Source of the DNA: an uncultured delta proteobacterium
GTDB taxonomy: Bacteria; Myxococcota_A; Polyangia; Polyangiales; Polyangiaceae
Assembly (NCBI GenBank): GCA_963716725.1
Contig: CAVQUB010000014.1
Coordinates: 1-64,000, forward strand
DNA: 64,000 bases
Reading direction: 5' to 3'
A program made the position numbers and the translations under genes. Within the stretch, counting starts at the first letter, position 1; every line of letters starts with the position of its first letter. Shown piece after piece: positions 1 to 57,103 of this stretch. The notes under the pieces were generated by a model. It made no database searches. It was not told where the DNA came from and was given only the letters and a program-made list of their open reading frames with translations.

Positions 1-86
1 GTGTTATGTCTCATGAATAACTTTAAAAAGTAATTCATTTATGGTCAGACTTCTCCAACATTTTTTTTCTGGCCGCCCACTTCGAC

Positions 87-665
87 TTACGACGTATTCC
101 TCGGTTCGTGGTGGGCCGACGACAGGCTCGACACGGCGAAGCGTGCGAGCCCCATCGCCGCGTACGTGCGCACCATCAGCGACAGTTCGCCGGCAGTGTC
201 CGCGTAGAGCAAGATGTCTCCCGCCATCGGCAGCCCGAGCCGCGCGATCTCGTTGATGCCCTTCACCATTGCCGAGTGGCACCCCGGCGTGCGCGTCAAG
301 CCGTCGTGGGTTTTGGCGCTGGCGCCTTTGATCGCAAAGCTCACCTCGGTGACGCCCGCGTCGGCGAAACGGCCTGCCACCTCGGGATACGCTAGCAGCA
401 TGCCGTTGGTCTGGAGCAGTACCCGTTCGTAGCCGAGCCGGCGCGCCATCTTGACCACGGTCACGGCGTCGCTCCGCAGCGTGGGTTCGCCGCCGCCCAG
501 CCAGAAAGCCGACGCGCCGCGCTGCCGCGCCGCGATCAGGTGCTCGGCGATCTCCCGCGTGCTCATGCTCGGACCGCCGTCCGATACCGAGTAGCAACCG
601 ACGCAGTGGTTGTTGCAGCGGTTGTCCGCCGAGACCTCCAGCCAACGCAGCGGGCGCGCGCTCAC
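87..665 (-). CDS. Radical SAM protein, probably 3'-truncated
   Basis: CxxxCxxC motif (CNNHCVGC), GGEPT and QTNG motifs. Only ~190 aa; ends next to an AT-rich break at the window start. GTG start at 665 assumed. Confidence 0.8.
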   Translation of the reverse strand: MSARPLRWLEVSADNRCNNHCVGCYSVSDGGPSMSTREIAEHLIAARQRGASAFWLGGGEPTLRSDAVTVVKMARRLGYERVLLQTNGMLLAYPEVAGRFADAGVTEVSFAIKGASAKTHDGLTRTPGCHSAMVKGINEIARLGLPMAGDILLYADTAGELSLMVRTYAAMGLARFAVSSLSSAHHEPRNTS

Positions 666-728
666 TGGATGCAACCGACGCAGTGGATGTCGAAGCGCTG
701 CACGGGAACCGCCCTTCCGCGCCGCAGT

Positions 729-1280
729 CTAGCTCCGAAAAAGTCGCAGGTCACTCCGGGGCGGGCAGACCGCGCCGAGCCACCGAGCGAGCTCCGCGCG
801 GCGCGCCTCGACGGGCGGATCGGTCGTGGGCCGCAGGGCTTCGATTGCGCGAGCCAGCCGCGGCCGGTCGATGGCGGCTGCGGTGTCGAGCACGAGGCGC
901 ACGTCCTCCAGGTCTCGCTCCGAGAGGCGCGCCATCTTCAGCAGCACCATGAGCGTGGCATTCGGCCGATACACGGTGCTGCGCGAACCGGAGTAGAGTA
1001 GCTCGAGCTGTTCTTGCCAACCGTCGATGCGGCGCACGAAGAACTCCGCTGCCGAGTTCACCGACTCGATGGGGAGCGAGAGTTGCTCGGCGAGCTCCAG
1101 TAGCGCGAGGCGCTCGCCTCCGGTTTGCGTCATCGGCACGACGTCGACGTCCTCCGTGAGCCGCCGCGGCGCTACCCACAGGGCCAGCGCGGCGCCGCCC
1201 ACCACCAGCCACTTGCCATCGAGCTGGTCTCCGATCGCGTGCACGATCCGCTCGATGGCGTCGCGGTCCAGTTCCGTCAT
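729..1280 (-). CDS. Nucleotidyltransferase-fold protein (DUF6036/AbiEii-like)
   Basis: VVGGAAL...RLTEDVD motif and C-terminal LLKMARLSERDLED. Confidence 0.7.
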   Translation of the reverse strand: MTELDRDAIERIVHAIGDQLDGKWLVVGGAALALWVAPRRLTEDVDVVPMTQTGGERLALLELAEQLSLPIESVNSAAEFFVRRIDGWQEQLELLYSGSRSTVYRPNATLMVLLKMARLSERDLEDVRLVLDTAAAIDRPRLARAIEALRPTTDPPVEARRAELARWLGAVCPPRSDLRLFRS

Positions 1281-1309
1281 GGCGCTACCCGTGTGCTAGC
1301 ATATACGTC

Positions 1310-1630
1310 GTGTCCGGGATCGAGCTCGAAATCCTAGCGAGCGCCGGCGCGCCGATCGGCGCTCCACGAAGCGCGCCACGGTCGCTGCCGCCCGACGACG
1401 ATCTGCGGCGAGCGGTCTCCTGGCTCGCGACCGACGAGCGTCCATTGGATCCGGCGCCCTTCGTCGCTTGGCTCAGCGCCTTCGAGCACCACTGGCCGAC
1501 GCGATTTCACGCGCTCTTCGGCACGCAGGGAGTCGAACTTCTCAGCGCGCTGCGCGGCGAACTGACCGACGAGAACCGGTATCTGAAGCTGCGTCGCATC
1601 GCCGTCGAGAATCTTTCCGGCGTGCTCTGA
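1310..1630 (+). CDS. Hypothetical protein, divergent from the nucleotidyltransferase
   Basis: 106 aa ORF with protein-like composition; no motif recognised. Confidence 0.55.
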   Translation: MSGIELEILASAGAPIGAPRSAPRSLPPDDDLRRAVSWLATDERPLDPAPFVAWLSAFEHHWPTRFHALFGTQGVELLSALRGELTDENRYLKLRRIAVENLSGVL

Positions 1631-1640
1631 CAAAAAAATG

Positions 1641-1893
1641 GCGCGGACAGCGCGGAGCGCGCGGAGCACGCAGGGAGTTTTTTGGTCTGGCTTCTCGACG
1701 CCCGCTTCGCGATGCCGCGACGGTTCGAGCGCTGGCACCCGAATCGAGGTTGGGCTCGAAGCGCTGGCGGCAAGGGCGCACGTGGCCGAGCCCGCGAGCA
1801 GCGTGTCGACCCGCACCCCAAAAACTCTTCTCCGCGTGCGCTGCGTACCCTGCGTCCCCGGCGACTTTGGTGCTTCGGTCTGGTTTCTCGACG
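1641..1893. repeat. REPIN-like repeat unit A (~195 bp core, inverted 4x9 bp termini)
   Basis: Near-identical to 2613-2865 and 2849-3041. The 9-mer arrays at 1641-1676 and 1829-1864 are imperfect inverted copies. Confidence 0.9.
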
Positions 1894-2092
1894 GCCTCGT
1901 CGTCCCGAATAGCCCCGGCGAAACGCTTCGTTTTCACCGCCCGACGGCCGCGCTCCGTCCCGCGACGTCGACCTCTCCCGTAGCGATACCGCGAGGCGAC
2001 CTTCATCACGCTGCCGTCGGCGGCGTTGGCCCCCGAGCGTCGGCAGGGGCCGCACGTGGCCGAGCGATCCCCCGCGATTCCTCTGGCGTTGC

Positions 2093-2524
2093 CTAGTCGT
2101 CCGCGCGAGGACTCAGCACGACGCGTCGAACCCCGCGCACCAGCTGGGGCACGTTGAAGTTGAGGAGCAGCCCGAGCTGGCACCTGGAAACCCGAAGGTA
2201 GGCCATGACCTGAGCGAAGTGGACTGGCGTCAGGGACTCAACCGCCTTGAGCTCGACGACGACGCGGCCCTCGACGAGGAAATCGACCCGTCCTTCGCCA
2301 ACGACCTCGCCCTTGTACTCGAGTTCATAGCGGGCCTGCCGCGCGAACTGAATGCCGCGGCACCTGAACTCCACGACGAGCGCGTGCTCATATACGCCTT
2401 CTGTGAAGCCTGGCCCGAGCGCGCGGTGAACCTCGATGGCCGCCGACACGACCGCCCCGGATATCGCGTTCAATTCGGCGCTCGGCTCGACGACTCTTCC
2501 CAATCTGCTGGGTGCCCCGTCCAT
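2093..2524 (-). CDS. GxxExxY protein (PD-(D/E)XK nuclease-like family)
   Basis: GPGFTEGVYEHAL, RVDFLVEGRVVVELKAVE, AQVMAYL, GLLLNFNV. Start uncertain (2524 or 2602). Confidence 0.92.
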   Translation of the reverse strand: MDGAPSRLGRVVEPSAELNAISGAVVSAAIEVHRALGPGFTEGVYEHALVVEFRCRGIQFARQARYELEYKGEVVGEGRVDFLVEGRVVVELKAVESLTPVHFAQVMAYLRVSRCQLGLLLNFNVPQLVRGVRRVVLSPRADD

Positions 2525-2612
2525 CTCGCTCCTGCTGCGGCTCCTTCGGTCTCGAGCTCCGGCGAGTTGCGTCCTTGGATCGTTCCCCGGGTCTTCTTGC
2601 ATCTGGGGAAAG

Positions 2613-3041
2613 GCGCGGAGAGCGCGGGGCACGCGGGGCACGCAGGGATTTCTTTGGTCTGGTTTCTCGACGCCCGCTTCGCGATGCCGCGACGATTCGA
2701 GCGATGGCACCCGAATCGAGTTCAGGCTCGAAGCGCTGACGGCGAGGGCGCACGTGGCCGAGCCCGCGAGCAGCGAGTCGACCCGCACCCCCCAAAAACT
2801 CTTCTCTGCGTGCGCTGCGTACCCTGCGTCCCCCGCGACTTTGGTTCTTTGGTCTGGCTTCTCGACGCCCGCTTCGCGATGCCGCGACGGTTCGAGCGCT
2901 GGCACCCGAATCGAGGTTGGGCTCGAAGCGCCGACGGCAGGGGCGTACGTGCTCGAGCTCGCGAGCGGCGTGTCGGGTCGCACCCCCAAAACTCCTCTCT
3001 GCGTGCGCTGCGTTCCCTGCGTCCCCGGCGACTTTGGTGCT
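2613..3041. repeat. REPIN-like repeat units B and C in tandem (period ~195 bp)
   Basis: ggtctgg(t/c)ttctcgacgcccgcttcgcgatgccgcgac at 2656 and 2851. 9-mer arrays at 2613-2648, 2803-2838 and 2996-3031. Confidence 0.9.
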
Positions 3042-3052
3042 GGGGGGTGGGT

Positions 3053-4850
3053 CTACCGGTACCCGGCCGCTTGCAGCGAGAACAGCCGCGCGTAGATCCC
3101 GTCCAGCGTCATCAGCTGGTCGTGGGTGCCGCGTTCGATGATGTGGCCGCCGGCCAGGACCACGATCTGGTGGGCCATGCGCACGGTCGAGAAGCGATGC
3201 GAGATCAGGACCGCGATCTGACTCTCGGTCATCTCGCGGAAGCGATCGAAGATGCGGATTTCGGCCTCGGCGTCCATCGAAGCGGTGGGCTCGTCGAGCA
3301 CCAGGATGTCCGCGCTCTTGCGCATGAAGGCCCGGGACAGCGCTATCTTCTGCCACTGCCCGACGCTCAGCTCGCGGCCCCGATCGAACCACTTGCCGAG
3401 CTGCGTGGCGTAGCCCTTGGGCAGCTCCTCGATGAAGGGCGCGGCCAGGCCCTTCTGGGCGGCTTCCTTCCAGCGGGCGTCGTCGTCGAAGGCGGTCACG
3501 TCGCCCGTGCCGATGTTCTCGCCCACCACGAACTGGTAGCGCGCGAAATCTTGGAAGATGACGCCGATGCGGCGGTGCAGCGCGCCCGCGTCCCACTCGT
3601 CGAGCGGCAAGCCGTCGAGCAAGACGCGGCCCGAGGTCGGGCGGTAGAGCCGCGTCATCAGCTTGATCAGCGTGGTCTTGCCGGATCCGTTCTCACCGAC
3701 CAACGCCAGCTTCTCGCCCGGCGGGATGTGCAGATCGATACCGGCGAGGGCAGGCTGATCGCTGTCGGGGTACTTGAACGAGACGTTCTCGAAGCGGATG
3801 CCGTCGCCGGGGCGTGGGCCGGCGCTGGCCTTGCCGATCTCCGGCGGCACTTCGTGTTCGAGGAAGTCGTAGAGGTTGGAGAGGTACAGGTTGTCTTCGT
3901 ACATGCCGCCGACCGCAGCGAGCGCGGCCGTCAGGGCGCTCTGTCCCTGCTTGAAGACCAGGAGGTACATGGTCATCTGCCCGAGCGTGATGCGCGATCC
4001 GACGGCAGCGACCGCGATCCAGGCGTAGGCGCCGTAGAACGCGGCGGTGCTGAGCAGCCCCATCACGAAGCCCCAGGCGGTGCGTCGCAGGGTCAGCGCC
4101 TTGTCTTCGAGGTAGAGCTTTTCGTAGATGCTCTTGAAGCGCCCGAGCAGCGTGGGCCCGAGCTCGAAGAGCTGCACTTCCTTCACGTAGTCTTCCCGCG
4201 AGAGCACGGTCTCGAGGTAGTTGCGCTGCCGCGTCTCGGGCGTGCGCCAGCGGAACATGCGGAACGCCTCACCCGAGAAGCGCGCCTCGGCGAAGAGCGC
4301 GGGCAGCGCGGCGGCGACCAGGCCGAGCACCGCCCAACCCGAGAAGGTCCAGAGCAGCAGCGCCGTAGGTCAGGAGCGAGACGCCGTTTTGCATCAGGCC
4401 GAAGGTGCGCAGCACCAGCGACAGCGGGCGGCTCGAGGCCTCTTGTCGGGCCCGCGTCATCTTGTCGTAGAGCTCGGAGTCTTCGAAGTGCTCGAGGCGG
4501 AGCGTGAGCGCCTTCTCGATGATCATCACGTTGACGCGGTTGCTGAGCTGAGCGCGCAGCAGCGACTTGACCGCGTCGAGGGCGCGTTGAAAGGCCGACA
4601 AGAGCGCGACCAAGCCGAGCTCCACCGCGACCCAGCCCAGGGCCACGTTGGGCGTGGCGCTCTCGGGCTGCTGGATGGCGTGCACCACCGCGTCGACGAT
4701 CAGCTTGCCGATGTAGGCGACCGCCGCGGGCAGCAGCCCGGCGCCCAGGCTGAGCAGCGAGAGGGCGACGGTGAGCCTGCGGCTGGTGTCCCAGACCAGG
4801 CGGATCGCGCGCCCGCCATAGCCGTAGACGCCGAGAGTCCGCGCGATCAC
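3053..4850 (-). CDS. ABC transporter, fused permease/ATP-binding (frameshift ~4350)
   Basis: Walker A GENGSGKT, LSVGQWQKIALSRA, LDEPT. The N-terminal TM part lies in the overlapping ORF 4269-5189. Confidence 0.9.
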
Positions 4851-5007
4851 GGCGCCACTATAGCCGCCCGCCCGACGCGCGCGAGGATCGTGATGGCGAG
4901 CGCGGCCCGCGGCCTTGGGGTGCGTGACGCCGCCCATGCTCTGGCTTGGCACGCCCGAGTTGCGCGGCTCCTTGCTCGGCACTGATCTCGGCTCTAGGCT
5001 CCGCGCC

Positions 5008-5994
5008 GTGCCTCTTCGGATCGGCTGGCTCGGCGCAACGTTCATGGTGGGCCTGGTGGGCCTGGCGTGGGGTTGCAGCAGCGGCGGCAGCTCGGGCGGG
5101 GCGCTCCCGGACGCCTCGGATCTCGATGGCGGCGCGGAGAGCGGCCCCGTCGATGCGGGTGCTTCGGCCGCCTGTGATCGCTTCGTCACGTGCTCGCTGA
5201 AGGTGCAGCCGGAGACCGGCGCTGCGACGCTCGCGGCCTACGGTCCCGACGGCGCGTGCTGGAAGTCCCAAACCAAGGCGGTCTGCGAGGATGCGTGTCG
5301 AGGCGGCATCGCCGCGCTGCACGCCGTCGCCCCGGCGGAGCCGGCCTGCCGGATCTGCGTTTCGAGCCAGGACTGCGCTGCTCCCACTGGGGCCTGCAAC
5401 CCGAGCACGGGCGAGTGCGTCGAGTGTCAGAGCCCGTCTGATTGCAAAGCGTCGTTGCCCGCCTGCGATATGGCCAGCGGGATCTGCGTCGCGTGCACCA
5501 GCGCCGCCGACTGCAGCGCGCCGCTCGCTGCCTGCGAGCCAGAGGGTCACAGCTGCGTGCAGTGCGTCAGTGGTTCGCAGTGCAGCTCCGGCAGCTGCAA
5601 GCCCGATCACACCTGCTGCGTAGCGACCGATCCCTGCTCCCCGAGCAGCTGCGGGGACGTGTACGACGACTGCGGCAAGACCGTGAACTGCGGCAGTTGC
5701 CCGAGCGGAAGTTTCTGCAACTCGAGCTCTTACTGCGAGCCGATCAGCACGACCTTTGCGTGCAACGCCGGTGGCAAGAACAACACCTGCACGAAGTACC
5801 TCCAGTACTGCCAGTACTACTTCGCCGGACCCGGCGGCACGACCGCCTGGTGCAGCTCGATGCCCGCCGCCTGCCAGGCGAACCCAACGTGTGCGTGCCT
5901 CGCGAGTGCGGGCGAGTACTATGCGCCCGACACCTGCTCGTCGAACACCGGACCGGACGGCGCGGGCGTGCTGTACGTCACGTCGAAGCCCTGA
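5008..5994 (+). CDS. Cys-rich putative lipoprotein
   Basis: Lipobox-like LAWGC, Gly/Ser linker, repeated C..CxxxxDC modules. Start uncertain. Confidence 0.75.
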   Translation: MPLRIGWLGATFMVGLVGLAWGCSSGGSSGGALPDASDLDGGAESGPVDAGASAACDRFVTCSLKVQPETGAATLAAYGPDGACWKSQTKAVCEDACRGGIAALHAVAPAEPACRICVSSQDCAAPTGACNPSTGECVECQSPSDCKASLPACDMASGICVACTSAADCSAPLAACEPEGHSCVQCVSGSQCSSGSCKPDHTCCVATDPCSPSSCGDVYDDCGKTVNCGSCPSGSFCNSSSYCEPISTTFACNAGGKNNTCTKYLQYCQYYFAGPGGTTAWCSSMPAACQANPTCACLASAGEYYAPDTCSSNTGPDGAGVLYVTSKP

Positions 5995-6080
5995 AAGCGC
6001 GATCGCGGCGCCGCTGCATCTGCCCGCTCGACGCGCCCGCGGATCGTGAGGTATGAGCGGGCGTCACTTCAGGAGGGTTC

Positions 6081-34393: not shown

Positions 34394-36045
34394 TGTTGCG
34401 AACCACCACCGGGCTTGGCGTCGCACTGCTGCTCTCCGCGGGCGTGGCCCGCGCAGCGGATGTGCCGGCCAGTCCCGCCGACTACGCGTCGAAGCTGGCG
34501 GGGCTGAAGCCGGGCGACACCCTGAAGCTCGCGCCGGGCGACTACAAGTCCGGCATGAACCTGTTCAACGTGCACGGAGCAGCGGGCGCGGCCATCGTGA
34601 TCGAGGGGCCCCCGAGCGGCGCGCCCGCGCGCTTCTTGGGCGTGAACGGCAAGAACACCATCGACATTCGCGACGCCAGCTTCGTCACCATCAGGAACTT
34701 GCTGCTCGACGGGCAGAACATCGACGGCGTGGACGCGATCAAGGCCGGGGGGCAGGCCTCGAACTTCGCGCACCACATCACCATCGAGGGCTGCACCATC
34801 ACGGGTCACGATGGCGGACAAACCAACCAGCAGATCGTGGGCATCAGCACCAAGATCGTGGCCTGGGACTGGGTGATCCGGAAGAACGTCTTCGACGGCG
34901 CCGGCACCGGCGCTTATCTGGGCAACTCCGACGGAACGCGGGCCTTCATTGGCGGGCTGATCGAGAACAACCTGTTCAAGAAGACGCTTGGCTACAACAT
35001 GCAGGTGAAGCACCAGCTCCACCGCCAGCAGGCCGACGTGCCCAGCGTGCCCACGGACAAACGCGTCACCATCATCAGGCACAACGTCTTCATCAAGCAG
35101 AACTTGCCGAGCCCCGACGGAGCGCGGCCCAATCTCTTGGCGGACGGCTTTCCGGCGAGCGGTCCGGGCAGCGACGATCACTACGAAATTTACGGCAACT
35201 TTTTTTTCCACAACGACGGCGATGCGCTGTTTCAGGGCAACGGCCGGATCCATTTTCACGACAACCTCCTGGTCGACTCGAAGTTCCCGGCGGTGCGCCT
35301 GGCCGCCCATCAAGGCAAGACCGTGATCGACGCGCTGGTGTACGACAACACCATCTACGACACCGCCAGCGGTATCTCGTTCGGGAGCGCGCCGAGCGGA
35401 CAGAAGCTGGTGGCCGGCAACGCCATCTTTTCACCGCAGCCGCTGTCAGGCGTCACCGGTGCGATCGACAACGTCACTGGCACCGTGGCCGACGCGCTGA
35501 GCCACGTGGTCAGCCCGAGCAAGACCCTGGGACAGATGGACTTCTTCCCGAAGCCCGGCAGCAAGCTGAAGGCCGCGGCCGTCGACCTGTCGAGCGTCAA
35601 GGCTGACGTCGACTTCGATCGCGACTTCAACGGAACGCAGCGCGACTTCACCTACCGCGGCGCCTATCAGGGTGAGGGCACCAACCCCGGGTGGAAACCC
35701 GACGCGACGCTGAAGGGCACGACGGGGAGCGGCGGGACAGGCGGCGGCGGCAGTGGGGGAGCTGGGACGGGCGGCGCAAGCGCGGGCGCCGGCGGCGCGA
35801 GCACGGGCGGCGCGAGCACGGGCGGCGCGAGCACAGGCGGCGCGAGCACGGGCGGCGCGGGCACGGGCGGCGCGAGCACGGGCGGCGCGAGCACAGGCGG
35901 CGCGAGCACGGGCGGCGCGAGCACGGGCGGCGCGGATGACGATGGCGGTTGCGGCTGCAGGACGGCGCCCGTCGGCGGGAGCCTGCCATTCACGGTCGTG
36001 CTGGGCGCGGGGCTCGCGTTGGGCGCGCGCCGGCGCAGGCGCTAG
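34393..36045 (+). CDS. Parallel beta-helix surface protein with MYXO-CTERM
   Basis: Signal peptide, LKPGDTLKLAPGDY, beta-helix repeats, DDGGCGCRTA + TM + RRRR. Confidence 0.88.
   Translation: MLRTTTGLGVALLLSAGVARAADVPASPADYASKLAGLKPGDTLKLAPGDYKSGMNLFNVHGAAGAAIVIEGPPSGAPARFLGVNGKNTIDIRDASFVTIRNLLLDGQNIDGVDAIKAGGQASNFAHHITIEGCTITGHDGGQTNQQIVGISTKIVAWDWVIRKNVFDGAGTGAYLGNSDGTRAFIGGLIENNLFKKTLGYNMQVKHQLHRQQADVPSVPTDKRVTIIRHNVFIKQNLPSPDGARPNLLADGFPASGPGSDDHYEIYGNFFFHNDGDALFQGNGRIHFHDNLLVDSKFPAVRLAAHQGKTVIDALVYDNTIYDTASGISFGSAPSGQKLVAGNAIFSPQPLSGVTGAIDNVTGTVADALSHVVSPSKTLGQMDFFPKPGSKLKAAAVDLSSVKADVDFDRDFNGTQRDFTYRGAYQGEGTNPGWKPDATLKGTTGSGGTGGGGSGGAGTGGASAGAGGASTGGASTGGASTGGASTGGAGTGGASTGGASTGGASTGGASTGGADDDGGCGCRTAPVGGSLPFTVVLGAGLALGARRRRR
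35791..35934 (+). repeat. Coding tandem repeat, 15 bp x9 (GGAST linker)
   Basis: ggcggcgcgagcacg repeated. Confidence 0.9.
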
Positions 36046-36102
36046 TACCGCGCGGCAGAAGTTTCGCTGGTTTCTTTTCCGTGTGCGTGTCGAAACCAAA
36101 CG

Positions 36103-36230
36103 CGCCAACTTCTCGCACGAGGCTCGTTCACGTCAACCGACGACCTTGCGGCGAAGATCGACGCGTACGTCGCGTGGTAGCCGCAGACCGACCCACCCTT
36201 TCGCTGGTCGTACCGCCCCAAGTCGTGGGC
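36103..36230 (+). pseudogene. IS630-family transposase C-terminal remnant
   Basis: Manual translation RQLLARGSFTSTDDLAAKIDAYVAW*PQTDPPFRWSYRPKSW matches the IS630 RGSFxS..L...I..Y...PFxWxY tail. Confidence 0.7.
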
Positions 36231-36301
36231 CGAATCCAGAATAATCCCTCACTTTCTGCGAAGAAAGCCGCAACTGTTTCGGAGTGAGGCCCGACCCCAC
36301 G

Positions 36302-36485
36302 GGGATGGCACAGGAAGGGCGAAAGCTCGGAAGATTTCATCCTGGCGGCGGACTGGGACCGGGCAGAGTGAGCACGGGATGGCACAGGAAGGGCGAAAGC
36401 TCGGAAGATTTCATCCTGGCGGCGGACTGGGACCGGGCAGAGTGAGCACGGGATGGCACAGGAAGGGCGAAAGCTCGGAAGATTT
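36302..36485 (+). repeat. 74 bp tandem repeat (36 bp unit x3, identical 38 bp linker x2)
   Basis: gggatggcacaggaagggcgaaagctcggaagattt at 36302, 36376 and 36450. Confidence 0.95.
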
Positions 36486-36948
36486 GGGGATGGGACGGAC
36501 GAGGTGATCGGTGCGCTGATCGAGGTGCATCGGCATCTCGGTCCAGGGCTGATGGAATCCGCATACGAGGCTTGTCTATCTGCCGAGCTGTCCGAACGAC
36601 GGCTCAAGTTCGAGCGGCAGCGACCGCTACCAATCCGCTGCGGGGGCGTGCACCTTGACAGCGCCTATCGCCTCGACCTGGTCGCTTCCAGATCATATCC
36701 TCCTGGAACTCAAGGCGGTCGAGCGGCTGCTCCCGATTCATGAAGCGCAGGTCATCACCTATCTGCGCCTTTCGCAGTTGCCTGTCGGCCTGCTCGTCAA
36801 CTTCAACGTGACCGCGCTCAGAAATGGCCTGCGGAGGCTCACGCCTGACCACCCCAAATCCTTCCGCTCTTCCGCCCTTCCTGTGAGAGCCCAAATGAGC
36901 GCGGGTCTCAGGGGCGAATCCACTCGAACTTCAGCCGTGCGGCGCTAG
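36453..36948 (+). pseudogene. GxxExxY protein, +1 frameshift at ~36685-36690
   Basis: GPGLMESAYEACL...YRLDLV, then DHILLELKAVE...AQVITYL...LLVNFNV in the +1 frame. Confidence 0.88.
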
Positions 36949-56548: not shown

Positions 56549-57103
56549 GTCGTGGGCCGAATCCAGAAAAATCCCCTCACTTTCTGCGAAGAAAGCCGCA
56601 ACTGTTTCGGAGTGAGGCCCGACCCCACGGGGATGGCACAGGAAGGGCGAAAGCTCGGAAGATTTGGGGATGGGACGGACGAGGTGATCGGTGCGCTGAT
56701 CGAGGTGCATCGGCATCTCGGTCCAGGGCTGATGGAATCCGCATACGAGGCATGTCTATCTGCCGAGCTGTCCGAACGACGGCTCAAGTTCGAGCGGCAG
56801 CGACCGCTACCAATCCGCTGCGGGGGCGTGCACCTTGACAGCGCCTATCGCCTCGACCTGGTCGCTTCCAGATCATATCCTCCTGGAGCTCAAGGCGGTC
56901 GAGCGGCTGCTCCCGATTCACGAAGCGCAGGTCATCACCGATCTGCGCCTTTCGCAGTTGCCTGTCGGCCTGCTCGTCAACTTCAACGTGACCGCGCTCA
57001 GAAATGGCCTGCGGAGGCTCACGCCTGACCACCCCAAATCCTTTCGCTCTTCCGCCCTTCCTGTGAGAGCCCAAATGAGCGCGGGTTCAGCCGCGCGGCA
57101 CTA
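56549..57103 (+). mobile_element. Left-truncated copy 2 of the IS630-like/GxxExxY element
   Basis: Near-identical to 36222-36906 without the 74 bp expansions. Right end ttcagccgcgcggcac-TA is a 14/16 inverted match to the left TIR of copy 1. Confidence 0.8.
56633..57086 (+). pseudogene. GxxExxY protein with the same +1 frameshift as the 36 kb copy plus a Y-to-D change
   Basis: ORFs 56465-57028 and 56835-57167 carry the two halves; AQVITDL instead of AQVITYL. Confidence 0.88.

Follow-up and report, generated by a model that had tools for sequence, protein, structure and literature searches.

A GxxExxY nuclease gene among repeat units with inverted 9-mer arms in a Polyangiaceae genome: a probable selfish word-arm cassette

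REP and REPIN sequences are hairpin-forming intergenic repeats, often placed at gene 3′ ends and in tandem clusters, and their partner is RAYT, the REP-associated tyrosine transposase. The locus described here resembles these systems in its build and carries an enzyme of another class. It lies in a stretch of 64,000 nucleotides (nt) from an uncultured member of the Polyangiaceae (GenBank assembly GCA_963716725.1, contig CAVQUB010000014.1, positions 1 to 64,000), referred to here as the window, which is part of contig C14 of the genome G000 (7.9 Mb, 35 contigs, 68% G+C, 84% complete). An intact gene of the GxxExxY family is placed there between near-identical repeat units, the ends of which are inverted arrays, or arms, of a 9-nt word. 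The locus is probably a selfish GxxExxY word-arm cassette, in which the arms would be the cis sites and the nuclease their reader or cutter, as RAYT is for the REPINs.

The second system of similar build is the intervening sequence (IVS) of 23S ribosomal RNA (rRNA) genes that bears an open reading frame (ORF). In the passages of PMC4990558 that deal with it, the IVS in helix 45 of the Coxiella burnetii 23S rRNA has a 28-bp terminal stem with tandem heptamers (GACAGAT) in the 5′ arm, RNase III cuts this stem at the first repeat, and the element is called a selfish element of unknown mobility. The GxxExxY proteins (PF13366) form a large PD-(D/E)XK family found across bacteria, archaea and viruses. 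In the part of a superfamily survey that covers this family, the function of PDDEXK_3 is given as 'Unknown' and multiple transfers are recorded (PMC3424549), and the relevant portion of PMC8934634 mentions GxxExxY in passing only. The literature search, which was not worded for REPIN/RAYT, returned no published description of GxxExxY word-arm cassettes outside rRNA.

The gene and the repeat units, with their opening (L) and closing (R) arms, are arranged in the window as follows.

1641..1676, plus strand: L arm of unit A, four 9-nt words (GCGCGGACA GCGCGGAGC GCGCGGAGC ACGCAGGGA), then GTTTTTT
1677..1828, plus strand: core of unit A, with a T-run, a core of about 140 nt and an A-run
1829..1864, plus strand: R arm of unit A, inverted 9-mers TCTCCGCGT GCGCTGCGT ACCCTGCGT CCCCGGCGA, paired with the L arm in the minimum free energy (MFE) fold
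1865..2092, plus strand: junction and a truncated, diverged partial core (core start 1873-1902, core block 2048-2065)
2093..2524, minus strand: intact GxxExxY/PDDEXK_3 gene of 143 amino acids (aa), identified from profile matches, alignment and a predicted PD-(D/E)XK fold
2525..2612, minus strand: unique 88-nt leader between the ORF start and unit B
2613..2648, plus strand: L arm of unit B (GCGCGGAGA GCGCGGGGC ACGCGGGGC ACGCAGGGA)
2649..2802, plus strand: core of unit B
2803..2838, plus strand: R arm of unit B
2839..2995, plus strand: junction CTTTGGTTCTTTGG and core of unit C, without an L arm
2996..3031, plus strand: R arm of unit C, which on the minus strand reads as a sense L-type arm starting 22 nt past the stop codon of the neighbouring ABC-transporter gene

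The three units measure about 195-235 bp (A, 1641-1864; B, 2613-2838; C, 2839-3031). Units A and B have the same build: an L arm of four 9-mers of the type RCGCRGRGN, a T-run, the core of about 140 nt, an A-run and an inverted R arm of four 9-mers. Unit C follows B head to tail with a B to C period of 195 nt and consists of a core and an R arm only. Pairwise identities are 91% over 243 nt (A/B), 92% over 198 nt (A/C) and 88% over 199 nt (B/C). An earlier note, made from the sequence of the window alone, had described an intact GxxExxY gene between near-identical units with inverted 9-mer ends, four opening and four closing words in A and B, and the closing array only in C; the profiles, the alignment and the repeat identities bear this description out. 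The same note had read a decayed further copy at about 1877-2065. Its 30-nt start is 80-87% identical to the units and its 18-nt block (2048-2065) 94% identical, and nothing between the two aligns, so that this copy stands at its ends and not in its middle.

The partial core ends 28 nt from the stop codon of the ORF and constitutes its 3′ flank on the strand of the messenger RNA (mRNA). Read on that strand, the order is L-core, L-core-R, the 88-nt leader, the ORF, the partial core and L-core-R; the ORF is thus placed between complete hairpin units and not inside a single L...R pair. The arms nearest to the ORF are the R arm of unit A on one side and the L arm of unit B on the other, so that it is flanked by inverted tandem-word arrays in an atypical order. 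Since the downstream partial core matches the 3′ part of the gene-less cores, the comparison suggests that the gene-less units derive from an ORF-bearing cassette by ORF loss followed by duplication.

The 143-aa protein matches the profiles PF13366 PDDEXK_3 (E 4e-39, 134 bits, curated cut-off 22) and TIGR04256 GxxExxY (E 4.8e-40, 136.5 bits, curated cut-off 35), and its ORF has an AGGAG-like ribosome-binding site (RBS) 6-10 nt upstream of the ATG. In the alignment of 15 homologs G39, E42, Y45 and K93 are invariant and D81 is nearly so; both the GxxExxY motif and the catalytic D81...E91-x-K93 are intact in the window protein. The AlphaFold2 model (pLDDT 90.7) predicts a PD-(D/E)XK, restriction-endonuclease-like fold, the structural neighbours of which are all PD-(D/E)XK nucleases (BpuSI and Cas4 SSO0001, Z 7.8; Hjc, Z 6.6). 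Lambda exonuclease is a Foldseek match at E 2.4e-3, the Foldseek search of the model against the PDB gave nothing at E ≤ 0.001, and a PDB sequence search with the protein gave no match at E up to 1. The structural scores are middling, and the model points to no single closest enzyme.

The association of the gene with arms extends across phyla. The survey comprised 20 homolog loci (39-55% identity, several of them related to one another) which, according to the record titles, belong to Verrucomicrobiota, Gammaproteobacteria, Bacteroidota, Acidobacteriota, Lentisphaerota, Spirochaetales and one archaeal bin. In 17 of the 20 loci Tandem Repeats Finder detects an array with a period of 7-11 no more than 200 nt away from the gene, and in 8 there are such arrays on both sides. 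There are 29 arrays in 9.2 kb near the gene (3.15/kb) and 46 in 106.7 kb elsewhere in the loci (0.43/kb), a 7-fold enrichment (Poisson P 5.5e-16) over a background that is the whole locus, mostly coding. Inverted 7-mers common to the upstream and downstream flanks number 269, compared with 94 in control windows (18 loci). The link between GxxExxY and periodic inverted repeats that the earlier note had put forward is therefore upheld by this local enrichment and by its absence from a control small-gene family, the four-helix-bundle genes of 66 myxobacterial loci, in which arrays of period 7-11 occur at 0.95 versus 0.76 per kb, without enrichment.

The words of these arms have a common core. A 6-mer that fits CRCRRA is the top flank word in 12 of the 20 loci and is within the top four in 16, compared with none of the 18 control windows and none of the 58 flanks of the control family. 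The window units contain this sense core as CGCGGA and CGCAGA. The usual layout is host stop codon, L arm (e.g. CACGGAAAG three times), RBS, ORF, R arm and, finally, the beginning of the following host gene; the cassette of two Thiohalobacter genomes (L024 and L026) is inserted between genes read from their frames as accB and accC. In the window, a sense arm begins just past a host stop codon on both sides of the locus, 10 nt after the ORF at 1310-1630 and 22 nt after the ABC-transporter gene.

1310..1630, plus strand: upstream host ORF of 106 aa without a Pfam or NCBIfam match, with its stop codon 10 nt upstream of the unit A L arm
3053..4330, minus strand: host ABC-transporter ATPase gene, with 78-86% nt identity in six same-genus genomes

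Homology to these six genomes (G001 to G006) ends exactly at the ABC gene stop codon, and beyond it lies a hot spot with different contents in each species. In G003 (L019, G003:C10:330000-342000) it holds an island of small genes with interspersed hexamer repeats, among them a syntenic GxxExxY ortholog of 61% identity and, as read by eye, an MNT/HepT pair, Uma2, two four-helix-bundle genes and a DUF4160/DUF2442 pair. Upstream of the G003 ortholog stands a long L arm and downstream of it an L-core-R hairpin, with the words GCGCAGAGG/ACGCAGAGA, and the usual order L-ORF-(L-core-)R is kept. In G002 (L014) the hot spot has 56-bp tandem repeats after a fragment read as Uma2. In G001 (L013, 1140-1500) it has a gene that looks RAYT-like by eye and a tandem series of six or more 52-bp repeats, every one of which contains a perfect palindrome; G005 (L012) has a similar gene, also RAYT-like by eye, and G004 and G006 have nothing of this kind.

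The arm words proved to be species-specific in these comparisons, in which each word pattern was tested in part of the six related genomes only. The TIGR04256 profile finds one gene in G002, one in G003 and none in G001, G004 or G005. The G002 ortholog (57% identity) lies at another locus, with CGCNACGA arrays on its flanks. A run of at least three CGCNACGA words gives 75 matches at about 30 G002 loci, and none in G000, G001, G003, G005 or the reversed control. The strict arm pattern of G000, (RCGCRGRGN)x3 followed by TTT within 6 nt, gives 14 matches at 12 distinct sites in G000 and none in its reversed control; among 40 relatives it is found at one site, beside the G003 ortholog, and in none of the 39 others. 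Sequence comparison thus indicates that each word occurs together with the resident GxxExxY gene in the genus, and the three gene-free species lack those words that were searched in them.

The G002 arms are not evenly spread. When the listed places are grouped, 26 of the 30 arm loci fall on the contig that bears the gene (38% of the genome), and ten gene-less loci lie within 210 kb of the sole GxxExxY gene (G002:C1:1132503-1342407). This clustering suggests that the arms have spread locally. At the 20 loci examined the G002 arrays begin 9-150 nt past host stop codons. With respect to the host gene end, 19 of 35 G002 arrays are sense-only, 3 antisense-only, 3 both and 10 neither, and the 26 G000 arrays are divided into 9, 4, 5 and 8, respectively; these counts rely on a crude ORF caller, and hairpin partners count against the sense trend.

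Filled and empty sites can be compared directly, and gene-less copies stand at sites that are empty in relatives, which agrees with the mobility that the earlier note had supposed. The convergent intergenic site between a response-regulator gene and an M23-peptidase gene measures 3-30 nt in G001, G004 and G005, and contains two 158-bp hairpin units in G000, a different hairpin with arms of the G002 word in G002 and 79 nt of other sequence in G003. Eighteen G002 arm sites have an adjoining host gene, and all 18 were matched in G000, some weakly; 17 of them are empty at the orthologous G000 site. The remaining one, 3′ of an acyl-CoA dehydrogenase gene, has a G000-type array. There, the arms of G000 and G002 stand at the same position, each in the word of its own species, and are followed by homologous sequence and a DUF559 gene, while the G005 site has what was read as a DUF559 remnant and no arm. 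Either this position has received arms on two occasions, or the word of an ancestral arm has been replaced by the resident one.

Variants of the window locus itself are found in metagenome DNA contigs from four studies. One allele joins position 1875 to 3050 and lacks the gene and units B and C, and gene-carrying contigs occur in the same metagenome run as this allele; in other contigs single units have been gained or lost. Recombination between direct repeats explains these variants, which are presence/absence polymorphism and not a mechanism.

Elsewhere in G000 the arms are dispersed without the unit. The earlier note had called the units of about 195 bp REPIN-like, but the unit is not a dispersed REPIN: with blastn (word size 9) the complete unit is found in G000 at the window locus only, and other places give arm matches of 33-52 nt. 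Arrays of at least three RCGCRGRGN words are present at 11 other loci, on contigs C1, C3, C6, C11, C13, C15 and C32, where the arms and short adjoining motifs are shared. In most cases a T-run comes next, with a motif resembling GGTTCGGA or GCTCGGA. All are intergenic, typically starting 10-80 nt past a host stop codon, and the loci are mostly gene-less; some of them, such as the response-regulator/M23 site, have no small gene in the vicinity. Several loci are tandem pairs of short L-core-R hairpins, and several hold single arms without a partner. Since the cores differ from locus to locus, these loci are not simple copies of one master element.

The comparison with REPIN/RAYT can now be drawn. 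The two systems are alike in that a single-copy nuclease-type gene is flanked by the repeats that it is thought to serve, in the scattered intergenic hairpin repeats, often at gene 3′ ends and in tandem clusters, and in the confinement of the repeat family to gene-carrying genomes, which is seen here in a small sample of 6 related genomes. On the other hand, the enzyme is a PD-(D/E)XK protein and not an HUH/Y1 transposase, the arms consist of a 7-11-nt word repeated in tandem and not of one conserved palindrome, the cores vary by locus, and the copies are counted in tens, not hundreds. Its enzyme belongs to another class and its whole units are not scattered through the genome, which sets the locus outside the REPIN/RAYT systems. 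It resembles both these systems and the 23S IVS in its build. Homing endonuclease genes and miniature inverted-repeat transposable elements (MITE) with their insertion sequences (IS) likewise have a nuclease gene in or beside a repeated recognition-like sequence, presence/absence polymorphism at precise intergenic sites and non-autonomous gene-less derivatives. The present locus differs from them in that it has no intron or intein context and that no target-site duplication or fixed terminal repeat is definable in it.

A second GxxExxY lineage in G000 indicates that the word belongs to the cassette. The 56 TIGR04256 matches in G000 represent 32 further gene copies with about 95% DNA identity: three are intact, about 8 have a compensated double frameshift and about 22 have one frameshift in common, immediately ahead of the ExK motif. 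The copies are situated at the 3′ end of an IS630-like element that has helix-turn-helix (HTH) and DDE_3 ORFs, CTAG ends and terminal inverted repeats of 20 bp; many of them are deletion derivatives.

36040-36948 and 56549-57090 of the window: IS630-like GxxExxY copies
G000:C11:406512-408246 (L006): full-length copy of the IS630-like element with its GxxExxY gene

The IS-borne cassette has L and R arms of its own, in a different word (CACAGGAAG or GCGGAAGGA), and the 20-bp terminal repeats of the element are unrelated to the arms; the element merely carries another GxxExxY cassette as a passenger. In G011, two GxxExxY paralogs also have different words. Consequently, it is the cassette and not the host to which the word belongs. 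Just upstream of one IS-borne copy, a 75-bp segment is present in tandem triplicate (window 36298-36485).

These results can be assembled into a model. The cassette would consist of a PD-(D/E)XK gene bracketed by inverted arms, that is, by tandem arrays of a short word (RCGCRGRGN here, core CRCRRA), and would have settled in the variable intergenic hot spot 3′ of the ABC-transporter gene. There, the arms and the 3′ flank of the ORF would have multiplied into the three gene-less hairpin units A, B and C by duplication and by recombination between arms. Gene-less arms in the species-specific word would then have spread to the 11 other intergenic sites of G000, mostly 3′ of host genes and mostly in sense. 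The GxxExxY nuclease would most likely act as a sequence-specific reader or cutter which promotes the copying or insertion of arm-bounded units, in a REPIN/RAYT-like manner. In transcripts, the paired arms may form a long stem of the kind that RNase III excises from ORF-bearing 23S IVS. The anatomy, the association across phyla with its common word core, the joint occurrence of word and gene in the genus and the filled and empty sites are observed; the binding or cleavage of the arms by GxxExxY, any chemistry of mobilisation and the RNA processing are inferred.

A wider generalization is put forward tentatively, as possible though less than probable: GxxExxY proteins would be sequence-specific nucleases that recognize the word arms of the cassettes encoding them and bring about their copying, and the cassettes would form a widespread class of mobile elements that seeds gene-less hairpins at host-gene 3′ ends, with arms kept matched to the resident nuclease and with the 23S IVS as members that landed in rRNA. 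The matching to the resident nuclease is proposed because arms at orthologous sites have different words in sister species.

Several observations weigh against the selfish-cassette model. On the mRNA strand, the array closest to the ORF on its upstream side is R-type and the first one past it is L-type, so that the usual cassette order is broken in the window. The earlier note had proposed that a unit could fold into a long hairpin; the L and R arms of unit A do pair in the MFE fold, but its energy is no better than that of shuffled sequences (-117.4 versus -115.2 ± 5.3 kcal/mol, z -0.42), and a second whole-unit fold gives z -1.86, so that the unit energies are not exceptional. The idea of single arms as terminator hairpins was rejected, since the folds of 22 arms, flanks included, had z values between -2.23 and +1.61 relative to shuffled sequences, and an arm on its own does not fold. 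The unit of about 195 bp is not dispersed, as judged by sequence matches, the cores of the arm loci differ, and copy numbers are low, with 11 other loci in G000. The genus comparisons rest on 6 related genomes that are not independent, G003 carries the gene yet has a single arm site, and the co-occurrence of word and gene could reflect the common descent of a cassette and its derivatives, without any action of the nuclease. The array background in the cross-phylum survey is mostly coding, which the control-family result mitigates. The Coxiella IVS with its similar heptamers is described, in the passages cited above, with a four-helix-bundle S23p ORF and not with GxxExxY. Finally, another protein could read the arms: in G000, 3 of the 5 four-helix-bundle (TIGR02436) genes have an arm of the same word within 40 nt and one gene of DUF559, a Vsr-like endonuclease, has one within about 50 nt, and DUF559 adjoins arms in G002 also.

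Three other readings were considered besides the selfish cassette. According to the first, which is unlikely although it survives best, the arms act purely at the RNA level, as a double-stranded RNA stem that is an RNase III site or an insulator, the ORF hitch-hikes, GxxExxY has another job, and the spread is due to host or unspecified recombination. The 23S IVS is the known parallel. Like it, the locus has a small ORF with terminal inverted repeats that form a stem, the arms pairing in MFE folds; the Coxiella IVS has the same build, RNase III excision has been reported for it (PMC4990558, in the same passages), and its GACAGAT heptamers resemble the CRCRRA words. The placement of the other-phylum cassettes between same-strand genes, the position of the arms 9-150 nt past host stops, mostly in sense (19 versus 3 in G002, 9 versus 4 in G000), and the co-directionality of the window GxxExxY gene with the upstream ABC gene also agree with an RNA-level role. 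However, a stem alone leaves unexplained the CRCRRA core common to several phyla, the partnerless single arms at several loci and the absence of arrays in the control small-gene family; the fold energies of the units are no better than shuffles, and lineage-specific gain at many sites is not accounted for. The window element lies between protein-coding genes and has gene-less dispersed copies, unlike the 23S IVS; being outside rRNA, the locus is not one of them. The 23S gene of G000 itself measures 3003 nt against a model of 2925 positions and therefore has no large insert.

Scans for other RNA-level signals gave little. The Rfam scan by E-value had no match in window positions 1-6000, and the terminator and promoter scan of 1200-3400 found one terminator-like site, with 1.3 expected from shuffles, and no promoter-like site. 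The idea of G-quadruplexes in the arms, judged by eye, was discarded: four G-runs are present in some arrays and absent from many.

The second alternative, judged quite improbable, takes the arms as cis sites of another enzyme (a DUF559/Vsr-like endonuclease, a RAYT or an IS transposase) and GxxExxY as one among several genes that land beside them as cargo. The foremost candidate is DUF559, since it is directly beside arrays in G000 (L007:2952-3437) and at 4 of the 20 G002 loci (L151:2734-3327, L141, L148 and L149), and one copy is inside the GxxExxY cassette of G002. The arm-adjacent DUF559 genes are always preceded by a conserved 35-nt palindrome (GTCTTCCCCATTCG...CGAATTTGGGGAAGAC), and DUF559 may be selfish in its turn, as a second gene with the same sites. 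The arms near four-helix-bundle genes in G000 and the RAYT-like gene seen by eye in the hot spots of G001, where it is flanked by the 52-bp palindromic repeats, and of G005 can be added in favour of this reading. On the other hand, the arrays track GxxExxY across phyla, and DUF559 was not seen in those homolog-locus flanks that were read; the putative DUF559 remnant at the acyl-CoA-dehydrogenase site of G005 has no arm; and the IS630-like element possesses terminal repeats and ends of its own. A RAYT or transposase elsewhere had been named in the earlier note as a possible true partner. No RAYT adjoins the arms, and the two Y1_Tnp matches of G000 are both on contig C5, where no RCGCRGRGN array lies.

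It is very improbable, and disfavoured, that there is no functional link and that the gene is a chance neighbour of slippage-prone tandem duplications in a recombination hot spot: this would suit the restriction of the complete unit to the window locus, the unrelated tandem repeats in the same hot spot of G001 and G002 and the variable copy number of the unit across metagenome contigs, but not the cross-phylum enrichment with its common word core, the inverted arms at the syntenic G003 ortholog or the absence of matches to the reversed control patterns.

If the locus is indeed a selfish cassette read by its nuclease, the inverted CRCRRA-type word arms are the first concrete, testable substrate for the GxxExxY family. 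The candidate partner arms are cassette-specific and are dispersed as gene-less copies in gene-carrying genomes. The within-genus word swaps, the co-occurrence of word and gene, the empty sites, the clustering of the G002 arms and the capture of a cassette by an IS are what is new from the window. The word swaps, the filled and empty sites and the approximately 30 G002 arm loci clustered near a single gene offer a natural experiment on mobility and on the co-evolution of nuclease and word, and the origin of ORF-bearing rRNA intervening sequences may also be explained.

Some further repeats were observed beside the other small genes. Four-helix-bundle genes as general carriers of arms were rejected, since the 66 myxobacterial loci show no array enrichment, although one of them (L093) has, by eye, clear inverted short-period arms; the association of arms with such genes in G000 does not hold across this clade. 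In many of these myxobacterial genes (L060-L100, e.g. L074 and L079) a perfect inverted repeat spans the RBS and start codon of the gene itself (catggtgcggctcctt...aaaggagccgcaccatg), and hexamer arrays (GGTCGN)n often follow them. In G000, a long array with an 18-nt period (ACGCAGGCT CCGCGGGCG) is located at C5:498710-498970, within about 500 nt of the Y1_Tnp match at C5:499487-499729, and may be the own repeat family of the adjoining RAYT-like gene.

The neighbourhood of the locus shows two additional features. The ABC-transporter gene is read as two overlapping minus-strand ORFs in different frames (3053-4330 and 4269-5189), which contain the transmembrane and ATPase parts, and this split may be due to a frameshift or to an assembly error. 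On the other side, a DUF6036/AbiEii-like nucleotidyltransferase gene (729-1280, minus strand) adjoins the small ORF without a family at 1310-1630 (plus strand). Both lie in a region beside the ABC gene that is not common to the relatives, and by this comparison the region 729-1630 seems to belong to the variable hot spot.

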